Sequence record: OR896820.1
Direction: 5' to 3' (one strand)
Source: Escherchia phage Stokescottia
Length of the DNA stretch: 64,000 nt
The position numbers and the translations under genes were made by a program. Position 1 is the stretch's first letter; every line of letters starts with the position of its first letter. Positions 3,087-64,000 of the stretch are shown piece by piece. A model generated the notes under the pieces. The model had not been told where the DNA came from, did not search any database, and saw only the letters and a list, made by a program, of their open reading frames with translations.

Positions 3087-3574
3087 TTGATTATAATGGT
3101 CTAAAGACCATTTTTGGTGAAAAACTGCCAGAATCTCATATCTTCTTTGCTACGGTTGCTGCGCATAAATATGTTCCTAGCTATGCTTTTCTGCGTAGAG
3201 AACTAGGACTTTCATCTGCGCATACTAACCGTAAAGTATGGAAGAAATTTGTAGAGGCATATGGTAAAGCAGTTCCTCCTGCTCCGCCTGCTCCGCCCTT
3301 AACTCTTTCTAAAGATTTAGCTGCTAGCATGTCCGTTGAAGAGGGAGCAGCATTAACACTTTCTGTTACTGCAACCGGCGGCACTGGTCCTTATACTTAC
3401 GCATGGACTAAAGATGGTTCTCCTATTCCAGATGCTTCAGGAGCTACCTATACTAAGTCTGCAGCAGCTACTGATGATTCTGGGGTCTATAAAGTAACGG
3501 TTACTGATAGCAAGAAAGTTAGTAAACCTTCTACTGCATGCACAGTAACGGTTAATCCCGGTGTTGGAGGCTAA
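3083..3574 (+). CDS. Capsid decoration protein (pb10-like) with C-terminal Ig-like domain
   Basis: 163 aa; Pro/Ala linker 'PPAPPAPP' followed by an Ig-like segment ending 'TVTVNPG'; sits between portal and protease. Confidence 0.65.
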   Translation: MIDYNGLKTIFGEKLPESHIFFATVAAHKYVPSYAFLRRELGLSSAHTNRKVWKKFVEAYGKAVPPAPPAPPLTLSKDLAASMSVEEGAALTLSVTATGGTGPYTYAWTKDGSPIPDASGATYTKSAAATDDSGVYKVTVTDSKKVSKPSTACTVTVNPGVGG

Positions 3575-3577
3575 TAA

Positions 3578-4210
3578 ATGACACAAGCTGCTATTGACTA
3601 TAACAAGTTAAAATCAGCACCGGTTCATTTAGATGCTTATATTAAATCTATTGATAGCGAATCCAAAGAAGGTGTTGTAAAAATCCGTGGATTCGCTAAT
3701 ACAATTAGTAAAGATCGCGCTGGTGATGTAATCCCTGCTTCGGCATGGAAAACATCTAATGCACTTGCTAACTACATGAAAAACCCGATTATTCTTTTCG
3801 GACACGACCATCGTCGTCCAATCGGCAAGTGTATTGATCTTAACCCTACTGAAATGGGTCTCGAAATCGAATGCGAGATCTATGAAAGTTCTGATCCGGC
3901 TATCTTTTCACTAATTAAAAACGGTGTACTGAAAACTTTTAGTATCGGATTCCGCTGCCTAGACGCAGAGTGGGATGAAGCTACTGATATATTTATTATT
4001 AAAGATTTAGAACTATACGAAGTTTCGGTAGTTTCTGTACCCTGTAATCAGGACTCAACATTCAATCTCGCTAAGAGCATGAATGGTCATGATTATACTG
4101 AATGGCGTAAATCTTTTACTGCAATAAGTTCTAAAGCTGTCCCAGCTCAAGAACGTAATCTTTCTGAACTAGAAAAACTTGCGATAGCTTTAGGCTACGT
4201 TAAAGAATAA
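3578..4210 (+). CDS. Prohead maturation protease (pb11-like)
   Basis: 210 aa directly upstream of the major capsid gene. Confidence 0.7.
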   Translation: MTQAAIDYNKLKSAPVHLDAYIKSIDSESKEGVVKIRGFANTISKDRAGDVIPASAWKTSNALANYMKNPIILFGHDHRRPIGKCIDLNPTEMGLEIECEIYESSDPAIFSLIKNGVLKTFSIGFRCLDAEWDEATDIFIIKDLELYEVSVVSVPCNQDSTFNLAKSMNGHDYTEWRKSFTAISSKAVPAQERNLSELEKLAIALGYVKE

Positions 4211-4227: not shown

Positions 4228-5604
4228 ATGACTATTGATATTAATAAGCTGAAAGAAGAACTTGGTCTGGGTGATCTGGCTAAATCTCTGGAAGGTCTGA
4301 CCGCTGCTCAGAAAGCTGCTGAAGCTGAACGTATGCGTAAAGAGCAGGAAGAAAAAGAACTGGCTCGTATGAATGATCTGGTTTCTAAAGCAGTTGGCGA
4401 AGATCGTCAGAAACTGGAAGAAGCTCTGACTCTGGTTAAGTCTCTGGATGAGAAATCTAAGAAGAGCGCAGAACTGTTTGCACAGACTGTAGAAAAACAG
4501 CAGGAAACTATTGTTGGTCTCCAGGATGAAATTAAATCTCTGCTGGCAGCTCGTGAAGGACGTTCCTTCGTCGGTGATAGCGTAGCTAAAGCGCTGTACG
4601 GTACTCAGGAAAACTTTGAAGATGAAGTTGAAAAACTGGTTCTGTTATCTTATGTAATGGAAAAAGGCGTATTCGAGACCGAGCACGGTCAGAGACACCT
4701 GAAAGCAGTGAATCAGTCTTCCTCTGTAGAAGTTTCTAGTGAAAGCTATGAAACTATTTTCTCTCAGCGTATTATCCGTGACCTGCAGAAGGAACTGGTA
4801 GTTGGTGCACTGTTCGAAGAACTGCCAATGTCTAGTAAGATTCTTACTATGTTGGTTGAACCGGATGCTGGTAAAGCTACTTGGGTTGCTGCTTCTACCT
4901 ATGGTACTGATACTACTACTGGTGAGGAAGTTAAAGGCGCTCTTAAAGAAATTCACTTCAGTACTTACAAACTGGCTGCTAAGTCCTTCATTACTGATGA
5001 AACTGAAGAAGATGCAATCTTCTCCCTGCTACCGCTGCTTCGTAAGCGCTTGATTGAAGCACACGCTGTTTCTATCGAAGAAGCTTTCATGACTGGTGAT
5101 GGTTCTGGTAAGCCTAAAGGTCTGCTGACTCTTGCTAGTGAAGACAGCGCTAAAGTTATTACCGAAGCTAAAGCTGATGGTTCTGTTCTGGTAACTGCTA
5201 AAACTATCTCTAAACTGCGTCGTAAACTGGGCCGTCATGGTCTGAAACTGAGCAAACTGGTACTGATCGTATCTATGGATGCTTACTACGATCTGCTGGA
5301 AGATGAAGAATGGCAGGATGTTGCACAGGTTGGTAACGATGCTGTTAAACTGCAGGGCCAGGTTGGTCGTATTTATGGTCTGCCGGTTGTAGTTTCTGAA
5401 TACTTCCCAGCTAAAGCTACCTCCGCAGAGTTCGCAGTTATTGTTTATAAAGATAACTTTGTAATGCCGCGCCAGCGTGCTGTTACTGTTGAACGTGAGC
5501 GCCAAGCTGGTAAACAGCGTGATGCGTACTACGTTACTCAGCGTGTTAACCTGCAACGTTACTTTAGTAATGGCGTTGTATCTGGTGCTTACGCTGCATC
5601 TTAA
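4228..5604 (+). CDS. Major capsid protein (pb8-like) with N-terminal coiled-coil scaffolding region
   Basis: 458 aa; charged coiled-coil N-terminus; strongly biased high-expression codon usage; followed by a hairpin terminator. Confidence 0.8.
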   Translation: MTIDINKLKEELGLGDLAKSLEGLTAAQKAAEAERMRKEQEEKELARMNDLVSKAVGEDRQKLEEALTLVKSLDEKSKKSAELFAQTVEKQQETIVGLQDEIKSLLAAREGRSFVGDSVAKALYGTQENFEDEVEKLVLLSYVMEKGVFETEHGQRHLKAVNQSSSVEVSSESYETIFSQRIIRDLQKELVVGALFEELPMSSKILTMLVEPDAGKATWVAASTYGTDTTTGEEVKGALKEIHFSTYKLAAKSFITDETEEDAIFSLLPLLRKRLIEAHAVSIEEAFMTGDGSGKPKGLLTLASEDSAKVITEAKADGSVLVTAKTISKLRRKLGRHGLKLSKLVLIVSMDAYYDLLEDEEWQDVAQVGNDAVKLQGQVGRIYGLPVVVSEYFPAKATSAEFAVIVYKDNFVMPRQRAVTVERERQAGKQRDAYYVTQRVNLQRYFSNGVVSGAYAAS

Positions 5605-5624
5605 TACAGGCTTTTCAGCCGATA

Positions 5625-5650
5625 AGGAGAGCTTCGGCTCTCCTTTTTTA
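5625..5650 (+). terminator. Rho-independent terminator after the major capsid gene
   Basis: Hairpin AGGAGAGC-TTCG-GCTCTCCT followed by a T-run. Confidence 0.75.
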
Positions 5651-5663
5651 TTGGGAAAAATAA

Positions 5664-6176
5664 ATGCAAATCATCACAGCCGAAGATTATAGATTATACG
5701 GTAGTTTAAAACGACCTGAATTAGAGTCTGGTGTAGAAATGATGATTACTGCTGCCAATGCGCTGATTACGAGCCTTCTAGGCATGGATGATGCTGATGC
5801 GGTAGACCAGTTAATCAATACAAAACCTACACGTAGGAAATATTTTCTGAGCTCACCATCTGCTACCTCCGTAACTAAAGTGACGATTAACGATAATGAG
5901 ATTGACCCAGAGCAGTATAAACTATACTCTGACGGTATTATCCTTCTCAAATTTAATCCTCCAGAAGGTTATATGGACGTAGCGTATACACAAGGTGGAT
6001 TCAATCCAATGCCTGAAGATCTTAAGCTAGCAGCATGTATGCTAGTAGATCATTGGCATAAACAAGATTACCGCCAAGCTAAAACAATTGGTGGTGAAAC
6101 AGTAACCTTCAATAATACTAAATCTGGTATTCCAGAGCATATTCGTACTATTATTGAAGTATATAGGAGAGTATAA
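5664..6176 (+). CDS. Head completion / adaptor protein (p144-like)
   Basis: 170 aa; position between capsid and tail tube genes. Confidence 0.45.
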   Translation: MQIITAEDYRLYGSLKRPELESGVEMMITAANALITSLLGMDDADAVDQLINTKPTRRKYFLSSPSATSVTKVTINDNEIDPEQYKLYSDGIILLKFNPPEGYMDVAYTQGGFNPMPEDLKLAACMLVDHWHKQDYRQAKTIGGETVTFNNTKSGIPEHIRTIIEVYRRV

Positions 6177-42961: not shown

Positions 42962-43204
42962 TTACGATTCCTTGAGCAAAGAAGCAAGTTCAGCATAGAC
43001 TTTATCTAACTCAAAGCCGATGCGAAGAGACACGTTTGTTTTCCGTTGTTTAAGTAACCACTCGGATATGTTAGGGATGCCAGCTAATCTATGCGGTACC
43101 ACCCTACATAGCTTTTCCGAAGTGTCGTAAACAGGAACTTTACGTTCTTTTACTGGGAACTTCCTTGTTTCCCATTTTTTATTCTTCACTGTCATTTCTA
43201 GCAC
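42962..43204 (-). CDS. Hypothetical protein
   Basis: 80-aa ORF. Confidence 0.25.
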   Translation of the reverse strand: MLEMTVKNKKWETRKFPVKERKVPVYDTSEKLCRVVPHRLAGIPNISEWLLKQRKTNVSLRIGFELDKVYAELASLLKES

Positions 43205-46046
43205 CTAGCTCTGCCATTGCTTCATCATGCATATGTTTCTCCTCATCAGTCATAAACTTATACGGGATTGGCATACACTCGATTTTACAATAGGTTCTGT
43301 ACCAGTCTACAATATTTTCAGTGTTCATATCCTTACCAATACCCATCATACCAAGATACATTCTGGCGTATTTTGGGTTAGCACTCTGGCCTGTTTTAAG
43401 GAAGAAATCTTTCTTCTTACCTTTCAGAGCTTCTATGAATGGTTTGATAGTGACATTTGAACACTTCTTAATATCTTCCCAGAACATCTCGTGCATTTTA
43501 TGGAAGAATGCCGCTCGATCATTCGGTTTATCCTTGATATACTGTTCAACATGCTCAACTGTTACATCTTTAATAGACTCAAGATGATAATAGCGAACAA
43601 GAAGTAGTTTAGCTTCATACGCATCTGCATGGCGTGGAGCACAATAATCAGGAGTTGAATACAAAATAGCTTTGATTCGCTCTTCCGTATACTCTTTTCC
43701 TGCACCTTCGATAGTTCCCCAGCTTTCACTGAAAATATCAATAGTTGCACCCTGATCAAGCAAGTAATAACGTAAAGTACTAGTATAATTCCTAGACTCC
43801 AGCTCCCTGCGACGTGCGTATAATTGCTGTGCTAACTCCAGCCAACCTTCATCAATGTTATATTGCTCAGAACCTGCGGAGAACCCACTCGTAGATTTAT
43901 CAATAAAATAATAAATGTTCTGAGCGCCACGGTCGCGCCTGATTGCTTGGAAACGCATGTTTGGCGCTTGGTTTGAGGTTCTAGTAATAACGAATACGTT
44001 ATCAAAGTAGTTAAAGTCAACACCACTTGTTACGGATGGACTACATAATAAGCAATCAATTTGTTGATCAATTAGCTCATTAGTTGTGTAATCCAGAATA
44101 CGTCTAATATCCACATCAGACGTAGAGTTTGAGTGGATTTCCTTAACTAACGCACCCGTATTACGACGCAGAGCCATACCCTTCTCATTCAGTTCATCCG
44201 GCCCACAGTCAGATACTAGGATAGATTTCTCCCCCATCTCTAGAGAAGTCTGAAGTGCAACCCAAATACTGGATTCATCCGGGAACTCATAAGCATGAGC
44301 TTTTGATAGCATTTTACGGTGATGATTATAAAATGCAACCGGTTTATCAAACTCAATCAAAGAACCATATGCTTCAATGGTTTCTGCACTAATATCCCCA
44401 TCAGATAATATAATGATTTTTGCAGTTGCAAGAATATCCCGAAGAACCTGAATACATTCACGACGTTGTTTAACAACCGGGGCGAATAATAGGTCATTCA
44501 TTACAGCATCACATTCATCGATAAAGATTGCATCAATTTGACCAATAAAACTCTTGAACTTATGCAAAGAATGTATAGTTGTGGACATACGGTCAATAGC
44601 GCCACGCTTAAAATTAAGCATATCTACAGACTTATCATATTGTCCTGCACTAAATTTCTTAGCATTTGAAGATACCAGTGCTCGAGTATTGGTAATTGCT
44701 AAGAAATTACCTTTAATAACTCCTGAATCTAACCAACGCACAACCGCTGTAGTTTTACCTGTACCTAGACTTGCTTTTACAAAAGTCATATAACCTTCTG
44801 GTGGTACAGTATTTAATTTCAAGAAGTTATCAGTTTCTAGAGAATTAGTTTCTAGCTTTTTAAGTGGAATACCTTTTAAAACATCAGGTATATCACGTTT
44901 AGAATTATTAACAAACGCTTTCAGAGCCTGTTTACGACCGTTATTAAAGTAATCTTGAATATTACGACTATTATCTTTAGTTGCAATATATTCTGATAAG
45001 GCTGGGCGGATTTCTTTTTCTAGCCATGCAAAATCAACACCATCCTCTAAAGCTCTGTGATAGAGTTTAGGAATAATACGTAGATACACTCCATCCTCAG
45101 CTTCTTCTAGTTCGCTGATAGTTTCCTCTACTTTATCAGAGGCAGCTTTTTTACCTTTAATTTGGTCGAGTAAAGAGTAAAACTCCTCCTTAAACTCACC
45201 TCTAGTTGTTTCATAGTCAACCAGATTATTAGGTAAATTTACTTTAGAACCCTTAACAAATACCAGACGTGAAGCACCCTCCGCTTTAAACGGATCTACT
45301 ATACCATCGGTAAATAACGGATCTGCAAAATAATGGAGCTGTACGGAAGAGTAATAAGCTAAGTCGGCAATATCAAAGCCATACTTTTGTCTACTACTTT
45401 CGTTGATAGATGTAAATAAGAATTTGATTTGACCCTGAGTTACTTTAACATTAGATTCTAGTATTAAGTGCATTCGGATACCTGGTTTTAGCCCAGCCGA
45501 AGACGATGCATGAGCGATAAACCCTGCATCAAGAGGAAACATATCCTCACTAATACTATTTAACATTCTAATAATATGTCTAGCCATGCCAACAAGATCA
45601 AACTTGTTACAACCACCTGTATCTACAATACCATCCACATCCATTGCAATTATATGGCTTGGGTTAGATACATTAAAGTTGCCCTTCTTACGCCGCACAT
45701 TATTTTTAGGTGCAAGACATCGACCTCGTACCGCAACGATATGAGGGTCAGACGTTAAACGTCTCATAAGAGGAAGCATTTCTACTAGAGTTTGCGGATC
45801 AACTTCATCAATTACATCAAACTTGAAGGGCATTGAAGCTGGTTTACCTTCAGGATGCTTTGAGGAGAATCTTTTAGCAAAAAGATAGTCTTCTGCTTTA
45901 ACTTCTCGCCAATTGCCTGTGGCTAAATCGCGATGAAATCCTGCATGACCTTGTAGGATTGAGAACACAACAATACTCCTGTGTTGGAAATGAAATAAGT
46001 TTTCTTTAGGACTATTCAGAAAGAATAGAACAACTGTTACTGTCAA
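43179..46046 (-). CDS. Large P-loop ATPase / putative SF2 helicase, possible replication initiation protein (start uncertain; the track uses TTG)
   Basis: Walker A 'SLGTGKTT', Walker B 'IFIDECD'; first ATG with any RBS is about 70 codons inside the ORF. Confidence 0.5.
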   Translation of the reverse strand: MTVTVVLFFLNSPKENLFHFQHRSIVVFSILQGHAGFHRDLATGNWREVKAEDYLFAKRFSSKHPEGKPASMPFKFDVIDEVDPQTLVEMLPLMRRLTSDPHIVAVRGRCLAPKNNVRRKKGNFNVSNPSHIIAMDVDGIVDTGGCNKFDLVGMARHIIRMLNSISEDMFPLDAGFIAHASSSAGLKPGIRMHLILESNVKVTQGQIKFLFTSINESSRQKYGFDIADLAYYSSVQLHYFADPLFTDGIVDPFKAEGASRLVFVKGSKVNLPNNLVDYETTRGEFKEEFYSLLDQIKGKKAASDKVEETISELEEAEDGVYLRIIPKLYHRALEDGVDFAWLEKEIRPALSEYIATKDNSRNIQDYFNNGRKQALKAFVNNSKRDIPDVLKGIPLKKLETNSLETDNFLKLNTVPPEGYMTFVKASLGTGKTTAVVRWLDSGVIKGNFLAITNTRALVSSNAKKFSAGQYDKSVDMLNFKRGAIDRMSTTIHSLHKFKSFIGQIDAIFIDECDAVMNDLLFAPVVKQRRECIQVLRDILATAKIIILSDGDISAETIEAYGSLIEFDKPVAFYNHHRKMLSKAHAYEFPDESSIWVALQTSLEMGEKSILVSDCGPDELNEKGMALRRNTGALVKEIHSNSTSDVDIRRILDYTTNELIDQQIDCLLCSPSVTSGVDFNYFDNVFVITRTSNQAPNMRFQAIRRDRGAQNIYYFIDKSTSGFSAGSEQYNIDEGWLELAQQLYARRRELESRNYTSTLRYYLLDQGATIDIFSESWGTIEGAGKEYTEERIKAILYSTPDYCAPRHADAYEAKLLLVRYYHLESIKDVTVEHVEQYIKDKPNDRAAFFHKMHEMFWEDIKKCSNVTIKPFIEALKGKKKDFFLKTGQSANPKYARMYLGMMGIGKDMNTENIVDWYRTYCKIECMPIPYKFMTDEEKHMHDEAMAELGARNDSEE

Positions 46047-60912: not shown

Positions 60913-61128
60913 ATGTTCTCTAAGAAACCACGTTCTGTTACTGAAATTGTTGCTTCCTTTACCACTATCACTGATGAACTTCAAGCTCGTATTGAGGCTG
61001 ATCAAAAAATCGCAGCTGATATTCAGAAACAGCAGGAAGAACTCGCTTTAAAGTTGGCTGAAACTAACAAGAGTGAAAAATCTGCCCAAACTATTATGGA
61101 AAATATCCTTAAACTGCTGGGCAAGTGA
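60913..61128 (+). CDS. Hypothetical coiled-coil protein
   Basis: 71-aa ORF. Confidence 0.3.
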   Translation: MFSKKPRSVTEIVASFTTITDELQARIEADQKIAADIQKQQEELALKLAETNKSEKSAQTIMENILKLLGK

Positions 61129-61169
61129 TTTAAATCAGGGGGCAAAAGCCCCTCTTATTTGGAGAAACT

Positions 61170-61391
61170 ATGCGTAATTTTGTAGCAAAGAATGATTTTA
61201 ACCGTGCTAGCACCCATAAGTCAGCTAGGGATTATACACGACTTTCTAGTCATGAGGTAATGGATTTAGCAGTGGATGAGTTAGACTTAGATGACCCCTA
61301 TATGGAAGAGAACTGGGATGTCAGTGAGGATATGCTTCCTGGTTTTAAAGACCCCAAGAAGTGGGAGTCTATTAAAGAGACAGCTCTTTAA
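61170..61391 (+). CDS. Hypothetical acidic protein
   Basis: 73-aa ORF. Confidence 0.3.
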   Translation: MRNFVAKNDFNRASTHKSARDYTRLSSHEVMDLAVDELDLDDPYMEENWDVSEDMLPGFKDPKKWESIKETAL

Positions 61392-61419
61392 TAGTTTTCT
61401 ACACAATAAAGGATAAGTT

Positions 61420-62121
61420 ATGAAAGTAAAACCATTTGGTATGCTAGATATTGAATCTCTAGGAACTCCAGGAGATTGTGGTACTACTCATATCGCAATG
61501 CCTTCTTTCGCTTTTGTGGCTATGCATGGAATTGATAAAGACCCTGATCTAGTATTTGTTACTTTGGATGTGCAAGATCAACTTAATTCTGGTGCCAAAG
61601 TCACAGCATCTACTCTAGCATTCTGGATGGATCAAGCTAAAAATAGTCCGTCTGCTATCCACATTATGGAAGCTATGAAGGAACGTAATCCAAAACTGAT
61701 TGCCTTCCAAAATGGTAAACATCATTGCACTAATAAATTAGGCTCAAACTATGCTGCCTTCTCTATGGCTCAAAATATTATGGAGTTGGCTCTAGGCGAA
61801 AATGCTTTGTATTATGGCAATGGCCCAGAGTTTGATATGACTATCTACTCTGCAAATACGTTCCATGCTGGAACCAATGAAGAGGTAGTTCCGTGGAAAT
61901 TCTGGAATTTGGGCAATGTTCGATCTCTTCGTAATCTCTGGATGCAAGCTGGATACAGTTATAAAGCTCTAGAGACCGAAGGTATTAGCTGGGCAATAGC
62001 TAAAATGGAGAAGATGGACACTATTCGTTATGGGATCTATCCAGTTAAGCACGACCCAGCATTCGATGCCTTAGTTGAGAGCTATTGTGTTGCAGCTATG
62101 ATCGAAAAAATGAAAATTTGA
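61420..62121 (+). CDS. Putative DEDDh-type 3'-5' exonuclease
   Basis: 233 aa; candidate Exo I 'LDIESLG', Exo II 'PEFDM', Exo III 'HDPAFDAL'. Confidence 0.45.
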   Translation: MKVKPFGMLDIESLGTPGDCGTTHIAMPSFAFVAMHGIDKDPDLVFVTLDVQDQLNSGAKVTASTLAFWMDQAKNSPSAIHIMEAMKERNPKLIAFQNGKHHCTNKLGSNYAAFSMAQNIMELALGENALYYGNGPEFDMTIYSANTFHAGTNEEVVPWKFWNLGNVRSLRNLWMQAGYSYKALETEGISWAIAKMEKMDTIRYGIYPVKHDPAFDALVESYCVAAMIEKMKI

Positions 62122-62122
62122 T

Positions 62123-62151
62123 TTGCTTCCGGCTCCAAAATTCTGTATAAT
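62123..62151 (+). promoter_or_regulatory. Promoter (TTGCTT-N17-TATAAT)
   Basis: Hexamers with 17-nt spacing upstream of gene 62192-62374. Confidence 0.6.
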
Positions 62152-62191
62152 ATATTCATAAATTTGAGAAAACAATAAAAGGAAAACAAAT

Positions 62192-62374
62192 ATGCCAGTA
62201 TCTAAAAATGTTCGTAAAAATGGTAAGAAAGCTACTCGTGATCTGGGTATCCGTCGTATGGCTGAACGTCAATCAGGTATCCAGAAAATCTTTAATCTAC
62301 TAAATCGTGCTAATCCTAAAATTGATAACAGTAACGATACTGTTCTGCGCACTCTGCTGGCAATTGGTCTGTAA
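62192..62374 (+). CDS. Hypothetical small basic protein
   Basis: 60-aa ORF behind a TTGCTT-N17-TATAAT promoter. Confidence 0.25.
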   Translation: MPVSKNVRKNGKKATRDLGIRRMAERQSGIQKIFNLLNRANPKIDNSNDTVLRTLLAIGL

Positions 62375-62427
62375 TAGACCAAATTTAAACAAATTCAAAT
62401 CTCAAACTTCGTATAAGGAAGCAAATA

Positions 62428-63066
62428 ATGACTACTCGTATTTCTAAAACTCGCGCTCTGGCAACTATCAAATCTCTGGAAGCTAAAATCCGTAAAGCTA
62501 CTGAACAGCAGCTTCTGATTGCTGTTGGTGAAGGTAAGGATAAAAACCAGGTTGTAGTTGGCGCTGCAATCGAAGTAGCTGATCTGTCTACCCGTATTAA
62601 GACTGATTTCCAATCTCTGCTGGATATGATGTCTCAGCGTGATCGTATCAAATCTGCTCTGATTAAGAGCAATGCAGAAACAATCGTTGAGATCGGTTCT
62701 CGTAAAATGACTGTTGCGGAAGCAATTGAAGCTAAGCGCTCTATGGAGCTTAAAGCTCAACTGCTGGCTAACATGCGTAAGCAGTTCCATGCCGCTACGG
62801 TTAAATTTAATACGCAGAAAGCACAATTTGATGCTAAATATGAGCGTTTACAGGATAGTATGGCTACTCGCGATAAGAAAACTTCCGAAGATGAAGTTAA
62901 AATGCAGCTCAACCTGCTGGAACTCAAGAATACTCCATTCTTGATTGACCCGCTGGAACTGGAAAAGCTGATTAAGCAGCATGACGAGGAATATCAGGAC
63001 TTTGCAACAAATGTTGACTTTGTTCTGTCCGAGTCTAACGCCTCTACCTTCATTGAAGTAGAGTAA
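62428..63066 (+). CDS. Hypothetical coiled-coil protein, probably abundant
   Basis: 212 aa with high-expression codon bias. Confidence 0.35.
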   Translation: MTTRISKTRALATIKSLEAKIRKATEQQLLIAVGEGKDKNQVVVGAAIEVADLSTRIKTDFQSLLDMMSQRDRIKSALIKSNAETIVEIGSRKMTVAEAIEAKRSMELKAQLLANMRKQFHAATVKFNTQKAQFDAKYERLQDSMATRDKKTSEDEVKMQLNLLELKNTPFLIDPLELEKLIKQHDEEYQDFATNVDFVLSESNASTFIEVE

Positions 63067-63449
63067 TAATTTAAAAGCTAGTAAATCGGTAGACGAAAGC
63101 CCAAGCATCTTACCTCGCAGCAGCGGTTGAAATACGAGGTTAAATAAGACCGCTGACCATACTATAAAGTATAATCTATTGGAGATTATGTTTATTACAC
63201 CAGCCTTTTAAGCTGACACGTAAGAACAAAGCGTCGTTGATATTACCGACACAACTTCAAAGATCAACATTTAAGTATGAAAGCTGAAAAGTTTAAAGAA
63301 CTCAAACTTCTAAACTTCTAAAGCTAAAAGATGCAAAGTATTCGTTGATGATTCAAACCCTAGATCAAAGGTACATGGCTCATAAGATATGGCCTGTGGC
63401 GCCTCTAGGCTGTTTATCGGTTTACTAGTTTCACAATTTAAAAATGTAT

Positions 63450-63478
63450 TTGCTAATTTACTAAGTTATCTGTATAAT
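63450..63478 (+). promoter_or_regulatory. Promoter (TTGCTA-N17-TATAAT)
   Basis: Hexamers with 17-nt spacing upstream of the receiver-like gene. Confidence 0.6.
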
Positions 63479-63508
63479 ATATTTTTAAATTGATGAAACG
63501 AGGCTATT

Positions 63509-63826
63509 ATGACTTTTCATATTTTGATTGATGATGTGCGTAATCTTCACGGAATGGACATTATCATTCGAACCCCAGAAGCCGCTGTAGAGTTTCTGAA
63601 TAAAACTGATACCACAGGCCATTTCGTTTATATGGATAATGACTTGGCTGTAGATGGTATGGAGGGTTATCAAATTCTTCGTTTACTCTTAGAATTTGGG
63701 CAGAGACCAAAGAAAGTGGTACTAGTAACCTCGAACCCAGTAGCTAAGCAAAATATGCGTAATGATTTGCTTGACTTAGGGTATAAAGAAAATCCCAATC
63801 GTGTTGAATATGATTGGCAGGAGTAA
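63509..63826 (+). CDS. Standalone CheY-like receiver-domain protein
   Basis: 105 aa; 'ILIDD', 'VYMDNDLAVDGMEGYQIL', 'VVLVTS' resemble the receiver fold. Confidence 0.4.
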   Translation: MTFHILIDDVRNLHGMDIIIRTPEAAVEFLNKTDTTGHFVYMDNDLAVDGMEGYQILRLLLEFGQRPKKVVLVTSNPVAKQNMRNDLLDLGYKENPNRVEYDWQE

Positions 63827-63831
63827 AAAGA

Positions 63832-64000
63832 ATGAAGGCAGCTTTGCTTTTAGTAGCTGCCCTTACCTTCAGCTTTAGTAGTCAGGCATCGCACGATGCA
63901 AGAGAAATAGATTGCATTGCTAAAAATATCTATTTCGAAAGTCGTGGTGAGGGCATAAAGGGAATGACGGCGATTGCACATGTTACTAAAAACCGTGTAA
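63832..64000 (+). CDS. Secreted cell-wall hydrolase-like protein (SleB/CwlJ-type), 3'-truncated at the window edge
   Basis: Signal peptide 'MKAALLLVAALTFSFSSQA' then 'NIYFESRGEG...AIAHVTKNRV'; AGGAG RBS; not in the ORF track because it is truncated. Confidence 0.4.
   Translation, partial: MKAALLLVAALTFSFSSQASHDAREIDCIAKNIYFESRGEGIKGMTAIAHVTKNRV

Follow-up and report, generated by a model that had tools for sequence, protein, structure and literature searches.

Evidence for a structured non-coding RNA with a heptad-repeat tract encoded next to T5.085 in T5-like and related phages

The locus

The DNA under study is a stretch of 64,000 nucleotides (nt) of Escherchia phage Stokescottia (OR896820.1), referred to below as the window, and the region of interest is the gap at positions 63067-63508, flanked by homologues of the genes T5.085 (62428-63066, + strand) and T5.084 (63509-63826, + strand). 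The source is a T5-like phage (Tequintavirus) with ~99.5% identity to Salmonella phage EH1/SP01, and the gap region is 100% identical to that of E. coli phage SP15. The + strand of the window is the reverse of the conventional T5 orientation and carries all the genes around the gap; in the curated T5 record AY543070 the interval 43142-43504 is blank. A preliminary description, made from the letters alone, had considered the gap non-coding and had offered a small RNA, a replication or packaging site or a regulatory element as its content. According to the present analysis, positions 63075-63431 (+) are almost certainly the gene for a structured non-coding RNA of ~357 nt. The choice of an RNA was right; however, this is a large, pseudoknotted and widely conserved RNA gene and not a small one. 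Its parts, in order, are the following.

63075-63095, + strand: P1 terminal helix, 5' strand, pairing with 63411-63431 and ending in the conserved junction C-G-A-A (63094-63097)
63098-63111, + strand: linker of ~14 nt between P1 and the pseudoknot, including AUCUU at 63107-63111
63112-63155, + strand: H-type pseudoknot, with S1 formed by 63112-63117 and 63135-63140, and S2 by 63121-63128 and 63148-63155
63159-63250, + strand: variable hairpins H1 (63159-63172), H2 (63173-63187), H3 (63201-63215) and H4 (about 63236-63250)
63255-63340, + strand: A-rich heptad-repeat tract of ~10-11 degenerate units of 7-8 nt
63355-63412, + strand: 3' domain, opening with AAAC (AAAYCC), from the RNAalifold consensus, its counted stem pairs including double changes
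63359-63364 with 63404-63409, + strand: P-a, 98.9% paired on alignment A1
63370-63372 with 63401-63403, + strand: P-b, 95.6% paired on alignment A1
63377-63382 with 63390-63394, + strand: P-c, 100% paired on alignment A1, with the loop UAAGAUA at 63383-63389
63410-63412, + strand: junction C-U-G, running directly into the 3' strand of P1
63411-63431, + strand: P1 terminal helix, 3' strand, marking the 3' boundary of the RNA

Architecture of the RNA

The + strand of 63075-63431 folds at -97.5 kcal/mol with z = -5.66 against dinucleotide shuffles, versus z = -2.74 for the - strand. The dominant pairing, missed by the preliminary description, brings 63075-63095 and 63411-63431, the opposite ends of the region, together in a duplex of 21 bp and -26.2 kcal/mol, which none of 200 shuffles equalled; five of the 21 pairs are G-U and would be C-A on the opposite strand. 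P1 was also tested in 33 loci with constructs of 20 nt per strand, joined by an artificial linker and anchored on the conserved CGA/CUG junction. In these constructs 88.4% of positions were paired, versus 55% in shuffles (0/500) and 37-48% in controls with a slid partner, and 10 of 12 pairs showed changes on both sides.

Downstream of P1 comes the H-type pseudoknot. The stem of 7 bp that had been noticed earlier (CAGCGGT at 63121-63127, ACCGCTG at 63149-63155) was recovered by an inverted-repeat scan and forms part of S2. The same topology, built from unrelated sequences, was identified in ~24 of 28 diverse loci, S1 starting 16-22 nt past the CGA junction, and in 17 of the 28 no more than 2 of 60 shuffles reached the observed score. 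On alignment A1, MAFFT splits the S1 strand of Vequintavirinae by an 8-column gap, and S1 and S2 were therefore assessed by an anchored search with shuffles. The pseudoknot is the only reading common to the T5-like and Vequintavirinae sequences. An alternative with two hairpins fits Vequintavirinae but is impossible in the T5-like sequences, and was rejected as the shared structure. The hairpins of 63159-63250 are replaced between clades.

In a 15-sequence alignment, pairing in the 3' domain and inner P1 taken together amounts to 91.9%. In the alignment of T5 and Vequintavirinae the individual helices (inner P1, P-a, P-b and P-c) reach 95-100%, compensatory changes included, versus 32-55% for the slid controls, and invariant U-G/G-U columns are also present. 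Across clades P-a occurs in the compensatory forms CCUAGA/UCUAGG, CCUGGG/UCCAGG, CCAUGA/UCAUGG, CCACG/CGUGG, CCCAG/CUGGG and CUUGG/CCGAG. A candidate long-range pairing may connect the linker AUCUU (63107-63111) with AAGAU (63384-63388) in the loop of the 3' domain; the case is suggestive and not proven. CAUCUU and AAGAU are invariant in the T5/Vequintavirinae alignment, an equivalent pairing differs by two compensatory changes between L081 (UUUAACC/GGUUAAA) and L091 (UUCAAUC/GAUUGAA), and five further loci (L066, L078, L085, L086, L092) reach 0-4/200 shuffles.

The heptad tract

Short direct repeats had been listed in the preliminary description. Their presence was confirmed by Tandem Repeats Finder (AAACTTCT, 2.4 copies with period 8 at 63304-63322), and the 'aacttctaa' units reported there fall inside the tract; what had been missed is that these short repeats are part of a heptad-periodic tract of ~85 nt. 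The units in the window are TTCAAAG, ATGAAAG, TGAAAAG, TTTAAAG, CTCAAAC, TTCTAAAC, TTCTAAAG, CTAAAAG and TGCAAAG. Among 36 loci, AAAG was found 189 times in the tract versus 13 times in the remaining RNA, with peaks of spacing at 7 (40), 8 (19) and 14 (31); the consensus of the unit is A-A-A-G-n-U-n, with U at position +2 past the G in 87% of units. The GC-rich clades L067 and L090 keep the 7-nt period with units of CAG/GAG type, and GGA motifs are absent in most clades. The tract was also found by nhmmer downstream of distant T5.085 homologues.

Conservation and distribution

The region is present and conserved in the relatives, a point on which the preliminary description had made its reading depend: 436 records of T5-like phages carry at least 80% of its 442 bp at 88-100% identity. 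In a set of 30 distinct T5-like sequences, conservation is 98-100% for segments 63058-63177 and 63328-63447 of the RNA and 87-98% for the flanking open reading frames (ORFs). Within this group only 63178-63237, in the hairpin region, is variable, the hairpins being 88-93% conserved. Vequintavirinae, which belong to another phage family and were reached via a weak DNA match, contain a homologous non-coding region of ~390 nt flanked by a T5.085 homologue of 38-40% protein identity and by tRNA-Thr; the RNA there stops 1-5 nt short of the tRNA gene. A protein-anchored scan of IMG/VR provided 80 loci, and in almost every one the RNA profile matches the + strand immediately past the protein gene; the nhmmer matches include loci with T5.085 homologues of 31-40% identity and contigs of up to 624 kb. 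In distant loci the helix sequences are wholly different and the pairing is kept. Sequence comparison shows the predicted fold and the heptad periodicity to be conserved from the T5-likes through Vequintavirinae to many uncultivated phages.

In at least five clades (L058, L065, L092, L199 and L216) a tRNA gene takes the place of the variable hairpins inside the RNA, between the pseudoknot and the heptad tract; its coordinates are 2229-2305 in L058, 2270-2347 in L065 and 2213-2286 in L092. These embedded tRNAs would imply either an RNA in two pieces after excision of the tRNA or a retained tRNA domain. T5.085 homologues were also identified on giant-virus bins of metagenome-assembled genomes (IMG/VR 'GVMAG' contigs L082 and L095/L096), with a recognisable RNA in L082. 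Such occurrences are either mis-binned phage DNA or a sign of wider distribution.

The T5.085 protein and the coding capacity of the gap

The RNA and a T5.085 homologue are adjacent and on the same strand in all loci examined. A DNA pattern that is independent of the protein, AAATCCTGG-N30-60-CCAGGCTG, returned mostly chance matches, as its information content predicts, the genuine ones being rich in heptads; all 11 genuine copies of the RNA with enough flanking DNA adjoin a T5.085 homologue on the same strand. The order is not fixed. In L199 (IMG/VR) the RNA comes first (about 4900-5340) and the protein follows at 5367-6036, starting 46 nt past the RNA, and in L216 tRNA genes lie between RNA and protein. 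The conserved feature is adjacency and not order. The RNA probably works together with T5.085.

The homologue in the window has 212 amino acids (aa). Its AlphaFold2 model (pLDDT 89.9) is confident and all-alpha, made of long helices with one end bearing a small beta-sheet. Neither Pfam nor NCBIfam gave a family for T5.085, no relative was found in the PDB by sequence search or Foldseek, and Foldseek matches in BFVD were uncharacterised phage proteins only. The label 'tail fiber protein' of PHROG_1491 is probably wrong for this protein, since the gene belongs to the early region, the predicted fold is all-alpha and there are no relatives of known function. The same label has been copied into many GenBank records of T5.085 homologues.

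The statement in the preliminary description that no ORF exceeds about 17 codons was mistaken, the ORF list containing ORFs of 27, 34 and 20 aa. The region can nevertheless be called non-coding, none of the three being conserved beyond close relatives. In phage GEC_vB_N3 (L001) an antisense ORF is annotated over T5.085 (3496-4209, - strand); this and the annotated 34-codon ORF (4490-4594, +) are probably artefacts of gene calling.

Promoter, boundaries and neighbouring genes

The features outside the RNA, or overlapping it as ORFs, are the following.

62428-63066, + strand: T5.085 homologue, 212 aa, PHROG_1491 (ORF list; PHROG match 2.5e-81)
63345-63428: ORF of 27 aa with TTG start (ORF list)
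63389-63493: ORF of 34 aa with ATG start (ORF list)
63208-63270, - strand: ORF of 20 aa (ORF list)
63450-63478, + strand: early promoter of the downstream gene, TTGCTA-17-TATAAT, near-consensus sigma-70 with 10/12 matches, outside the RNA
63509-63826, + strand: downstream gene, T5.084 homologue, cREC_REC receiver domain protein (Pfam PF20274, 3.8e-15), context outside the element

The strong promoter that had been placed at the end of the gap is real, but it lies outside the RNA and serves the downstream gene. It resembles BF23 promoter P13a, and a promoter is annotated at the homologous place of T5 record AY543070 (43067-43141). An inverted repeat of 17 nt, 94% complementary, brackets the promoter core (63434-63450 and 63476-63492, CAATTTAAAAATGTATT and AATATATTTTTAAATTG); this could be operator-like symmetry or the plain architecture of AT-rich T5 promoters. 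In a scan of 62300-63900 this was the only promoter, past the RNA, with none between T5.086 and the RNA, and no terminator-like site was identified in the same interval. AY543070 has an annotated promoter upstream of T5.086. The 3' boundary is also marked in Salmonella phage bobsandoy (L220, 666-1203), which has a freestanding homing-endonuclease gene precisely at the point 63430/63431; this insertion lies at the 3' end of P1, between RNA and promoter, and leaves the RNA intact. The record of phage falkor gives a split match over a homing-endonuclease gene.

Proteins of PF20274 have been connected with cyclic-phosphate RNA repair. The ORF at 61420-62121 (+), second upstream of T5.085 and third upstream of the gap, matches the Rv2179c-like 3'-5' exoribonuclease family and is labelled 'metallopeptidase' or 'exonuclease' in public records. 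With the cREC_REC and exoribonuclease genes nearby, the neighbourhood of the RNA is one of RNA metabolism. In SP15 the module corresponds to ORF83 plus the gap, and the Rad anti-retron gene ORF75 (L221, 14764-15333) is found with tRNA genes ~5.3 kb downstream of the RNA. A tRNA-rich 'anti-defence island' has been described for SP15/T5, the RNA module being at its edge, and ORF82-83 with the RNA of SP15 seem to lie just outside the fragments assayed in that work (10.1101/2023.03.15.532788). Suppressor-type tRNAs were observed near the module in three loci: tRNA-sup(tca) two genes past the RNA in two Erwinia phages (L011, 1671-1778; L017, 1968-2075), and a tRNA with anticodon tta upstream of the module in L059 (265-337). 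UAA is also the commonest 'codon' of the heptads.

Searches for known families were negative. ARAGORN identified no tRNA or transfer-messenger RNA (tmRNA) in the window and no tmRNA in 35 related loci. Rfam 15 (cmscan of 61000-64000, E<=10) gave only a chance snoR83 match outside the element, and Rfam searches of 14 diverse homologous loci (E<=1) gave tRNAs only. No covariance model matched among tmRNA, RNase P RNA, group I/II introns, 6S, Y RNA/YrlA, GOLLD, ROOL and riboswitches. Readings as tmRNA or as an RNase P-like RNA, prompted by the topology and by the string GACGAAAGCCC, were rejected, the string not being conserved in Vequintavirinae and no model matching. The annotated stable RNAs of BF23 were likewise discarded, for the BF23 tRNA-region record matches only 372-427 of the query, that is, the promoter.

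Comparison with known RNAs

GOLLD and ROOL, which we take to be Rfam RF01998 and RF03087, are the first RNAs to be compared. They are large, pseudoknotted non-coding RNAs of phages and prophages, typically located beside tRNA genes and found by comparative genomics (PMC5737381, PMC12286853). The RNA described here resembles them in having one H-type pseudoknot with candidate long-range pairings and in the tRNA genes that abut it or are embedded in it in many loci. It differs in being half their size or less, in matching neither model, in its heptad tract and in its constant linkage to a protein gene, and the phages that carry it infect Enterobacteria and many other hosts. With tmRNA it shares a length of ~350 nt, paired ends, a pseudoknot that directly precedes an A-rich centre of weak structure, more structure downstream of this centre, and a frequent location near phage tRNA genes; in contrast to tmRNA, it lacks a tRNA-like acceptor/T-arm, a 3' CCA and a conserved tag frame, the frame being broken by indels of 1 and 4 nt.

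Repeated short motifs are known from the trp leader bound by TRAP (11 (G/U)AG with spacers of 2-3 nt), the hut leader bound by HutP (UAG-N4 repeats) and CsrB/RsmZ bound by CsrA. The present tract resembles these systems in its tandem copies of a short motif at constant spacing (AAAG with a period of 7 nt, in up to ~11 copies), an arrangement typical of RNAs to which protein binds multivalently. The motif and period are however others, the array is inside a closed pseudoknotted scaffold and not in an mRNA leader, and T5.085, the candidate ligand, is modelled as an elongated all-alpha protein.

Pseudo-ToxI of phage phiTE is a repetitive non-coding RNA acting as a mimic or decoy (PMC3594212). The ToxI units are ~36 nt long, each with its own pseudoknot, and the partner is the endoribonuclease ToxN, whereas the units found here are of 7-8 nt and no nuclease signature was identified. 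Type III antitoxins have tandem repeats of ~34-45 nt, which an adjacent endoribonuclease of ToxN/AbiEii type processes; a type III antitoxin of ToxI type was rejected for the period of 7-8 nt and because T5.085 has no relative of nuclease fold in Pfam, NCBIfam or the PDB. RNA anti-CRISPRs are further RNA mimics directed against defence. Other stable phage RNAs that are not tRNAs and lie by tRNA clusters are RNA2, RNA3, RNA IV and RNA 2H of T5/BF23 (NC_042564) and species 1 and 2 of T4; unlike the present RNA they are of 74-172 nt and mostly tRNA-like. Among the papers that could be searched, none was found to name T5.085 or to describe this RNA, and the catalogue of 10,006 viral RNA candidates by Fremin et al. 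(PMC10690425) may contain fragments of it. The RNA forms a new family among the large non-coding RNAs that phages encode close to tRNA genes, and its unusual features are the periodic heptad array and the obligatory protein partner.

Proposed function and alternatives

The best overall explanation is a processed, trans-acting RNA that offers a heptad platform and works with T5.085, a reading that we consider about equally apt to be right or wrong as a whole. In the T5-likes the early promoter preceding T5.086 would drive a transcript of T5.086-T5.085 and the RNA, from which the RNA would then be excised at or near the terminal helix of 21 bp, a length like that of RNase III substrates. Co-transcription followed by excision is the simplest model because there is no terminator or promoter in between and a promoter is found upstream of T5.086. 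In Vequintavirinae, cleavage of the abutting tRNA-Thr by RNase P would set the 3' end of the RNA. The mature RNA would act in trans, its rigid pseudoknotted core holding out the heptad array as a multivalent platform on which several copies of a single ligand could bind. The simplest choice of ligand would be the co-inherited T5.085, alone or with a host factor, giving a ribonucleoprotein (RNP). This multivalent-platform mechanism is put forward tentatively, as a possibility with somewhat more doubt than confidence attached to it. To judge from its neighbours, which include tRNA, RNA-repair and anti-defence genes, the RNA may act on RNA metabolism or host defence in early infection.

A more specific device may be imagined from the sequence of the unit. 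In textbook numbering of tRNA positions, n-U-n-A-A-A-G is exactly complementary to the loop C32-U33-U34-U35-N36-A37-N38, the variable positions of the unit corresponding to tRNA positions 36 and 38. Such loops are those of Lys, Glu and Gln (NAA/NAG-decoding) tRNAs, the favourite targets of anticodon nucleases. The RNA and T5.085 might then rack or shield tRNA anticodon loops, or be decoys for codon- or anticodon-specific nucleases, as a counter-defence or tRNA-handling device. This would explain the association with tRNA clusters, the embedded tRNAs and the position at the edge of the anti-defence island; the reading is weakened because the commonest 'codon' of the units is UAA, and it is rated quite improbable.

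Several observations weigh against a platform RNA acting with T5.085. The T5.085 family is not basic (median pI, the isoelectric point, ~6; net charge ~-1) and Pfam and PDB searches revealed no recognisable RNA-binding domain, which weakens the idea that many copies of T5.085 coat the tract. T5.085 as the ligand of the repeats is a candidate by synteny only, its pI counting weakly against it, and adjacency is co-inheritance and not physical interaction. By thermodynamic prediction the tract is little more unpaired (0.46) than the remaining RNA (0.37), and display of the heptads as single strand is a supposition. The P1 constructs were picked after the duplex search, though anchored on the CGA/CUG junction, and the pseudoknot test is a per-locus shuffle test and not one of R-scape type. 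Transcription, processing and stability of the RNA are inferred, and upstream of the RNA in Vequintavirinae no promoter above threshold was found, TTGTAA-17-TAAAGT with an upstream TG being recognised by eye below the threshold.

Other explanations share part of this evidence. The RNA may be a decoy or sponge for a host factor, for counter-defence or takeover, with T5.085 as a helper; candidate targets are RNase E, a toxin cutting A-rich codons and an anticodon nuclease, or the RNA may pair with U-rich anticodon loops. The up to ~11 near-identical short tandem sites would suit such a function, as would the fit of AAAG|nU to the RN|WUU preference of RNase E, the complementarity of the unit to the anticodon loop C32-U33-U34-U35-N36-A37-N38, the heptads of CAG/GAG type in L067 and L090, and the tRNA genes that many clades carry next to the RNA or within it. 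In SP15/T5 the module borders the tRNA-rich anti-defence island (10.1101/2023.03.15.532788), and RNA mimics that defeat defence are established, e.g. pseudo-ToxI (PMC3594212). However, position 3 of the unit is near random (U 34%, C 30%, A 19%, G 17%), its commonest 'codon', UAA, has no ordinary cognate tRNA, no result obtained here points to a specific host target and the constant adjacency of T5.085 is left unexplained, so that a sponge is thought unlikely. A similar but somewhat lower standing is given to a cis-acting element in the 3' untranslated region of the T5.085 mRNA (stabiliser, processing site or autoregulatory operator) without function in trans. The constant adjacency agrees with this, and so does the start of the element 8 nt past the T5.085 stop codon in the T5-likes with no terminator or promoter between them; but the RNA precedes the protein gene in L199, tRNA genes separate the two in L216, and a small hairpin stands between the stop codon and P1 in several clades. 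Furthermore, the terminal helix closes the RNA into a separate unit, a molecule of ~350 nt that has one pseudoknot or more, long-range pairings and a periodic array exceeds by far what an mRNA 3' stabiliser requires, and the nucleotide conservation of the RNA is higher than that of the gene supposedly regulated.

By analogy with GOLLD and ROOL, the RNA might assemble into a multimer by itself with T5.085 as cargo or accessory, which is regarded as quite unlikely: a large, multi-pseudoknotted RNA beside phage tRNA genes has their genomic signature (PMC12286853; PMC5737381), but it has no similarity to their models, is much smaller (~300-370 nt), and GOLLD and ROOL have no obligatory protein partner. 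An element acting as DNA (origin, packaging site or array bound by a double-stranded DNA-binding protein) is far less credible than these. The region is AT-rich, with short tandem and inverted repeats, and to our knowledge the replication origins of T5 have never been precisely mapped; nevertheless, the helices are upheld by G-U pairs that only the + strand can form, as in P1 and the invariant U-G/G-U columns, pairing is preserved by compensatory changes despite complete divergence of sequence, crossing pairings are conserved, the + strand folds far better against shuffles than the - strand, and the element is found alike in phage families whose replication and packaging systems are unrelated. 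The origin or packaging site offered in the preliminary description was consequently left unsupported, and was rejected, the conserved signal being strand-specific RNA pairing and not strand-symmetric. Least credible of all is a small protein, from the 34-codon ORF at 63389-63493 or a 14-codon ATG ORF in the heptad tract. ORFs of 27 and 34 codons do exist, and the latter is annotated in GEC_vB_N3 and appears as a hypothetical protein in some records; yet it crosses the promoter and is missing in Vequintavirinae, whose RNA is followed by a tRNA, the candidate ORFs contain indels of 1 and 4 nt, and conservation tracks base pairing and not codons.

Significance

T5 is a classical model phage, and in it a blank gap of ~360 bp encodes a complex RNA that is more conserved than the neighbouring genes. 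Two kinds of annotation are to be corrected, the 'tail fiber protein' label and the spurious small ORFs. The heptad array is a concrete handle for a search of the ligand, and the system is experimentally tractable, for T5, SP15 and phages of the BASEL collection infect E. coli K-12. The RNA and T5.085 are shared across Demerecviridae, Vequintavirinae and uncultivated phages of jumbo size, which makes them a widespread candidate RNP, and the anti-defence island nearby suggests a role in the arms race between phage and host.

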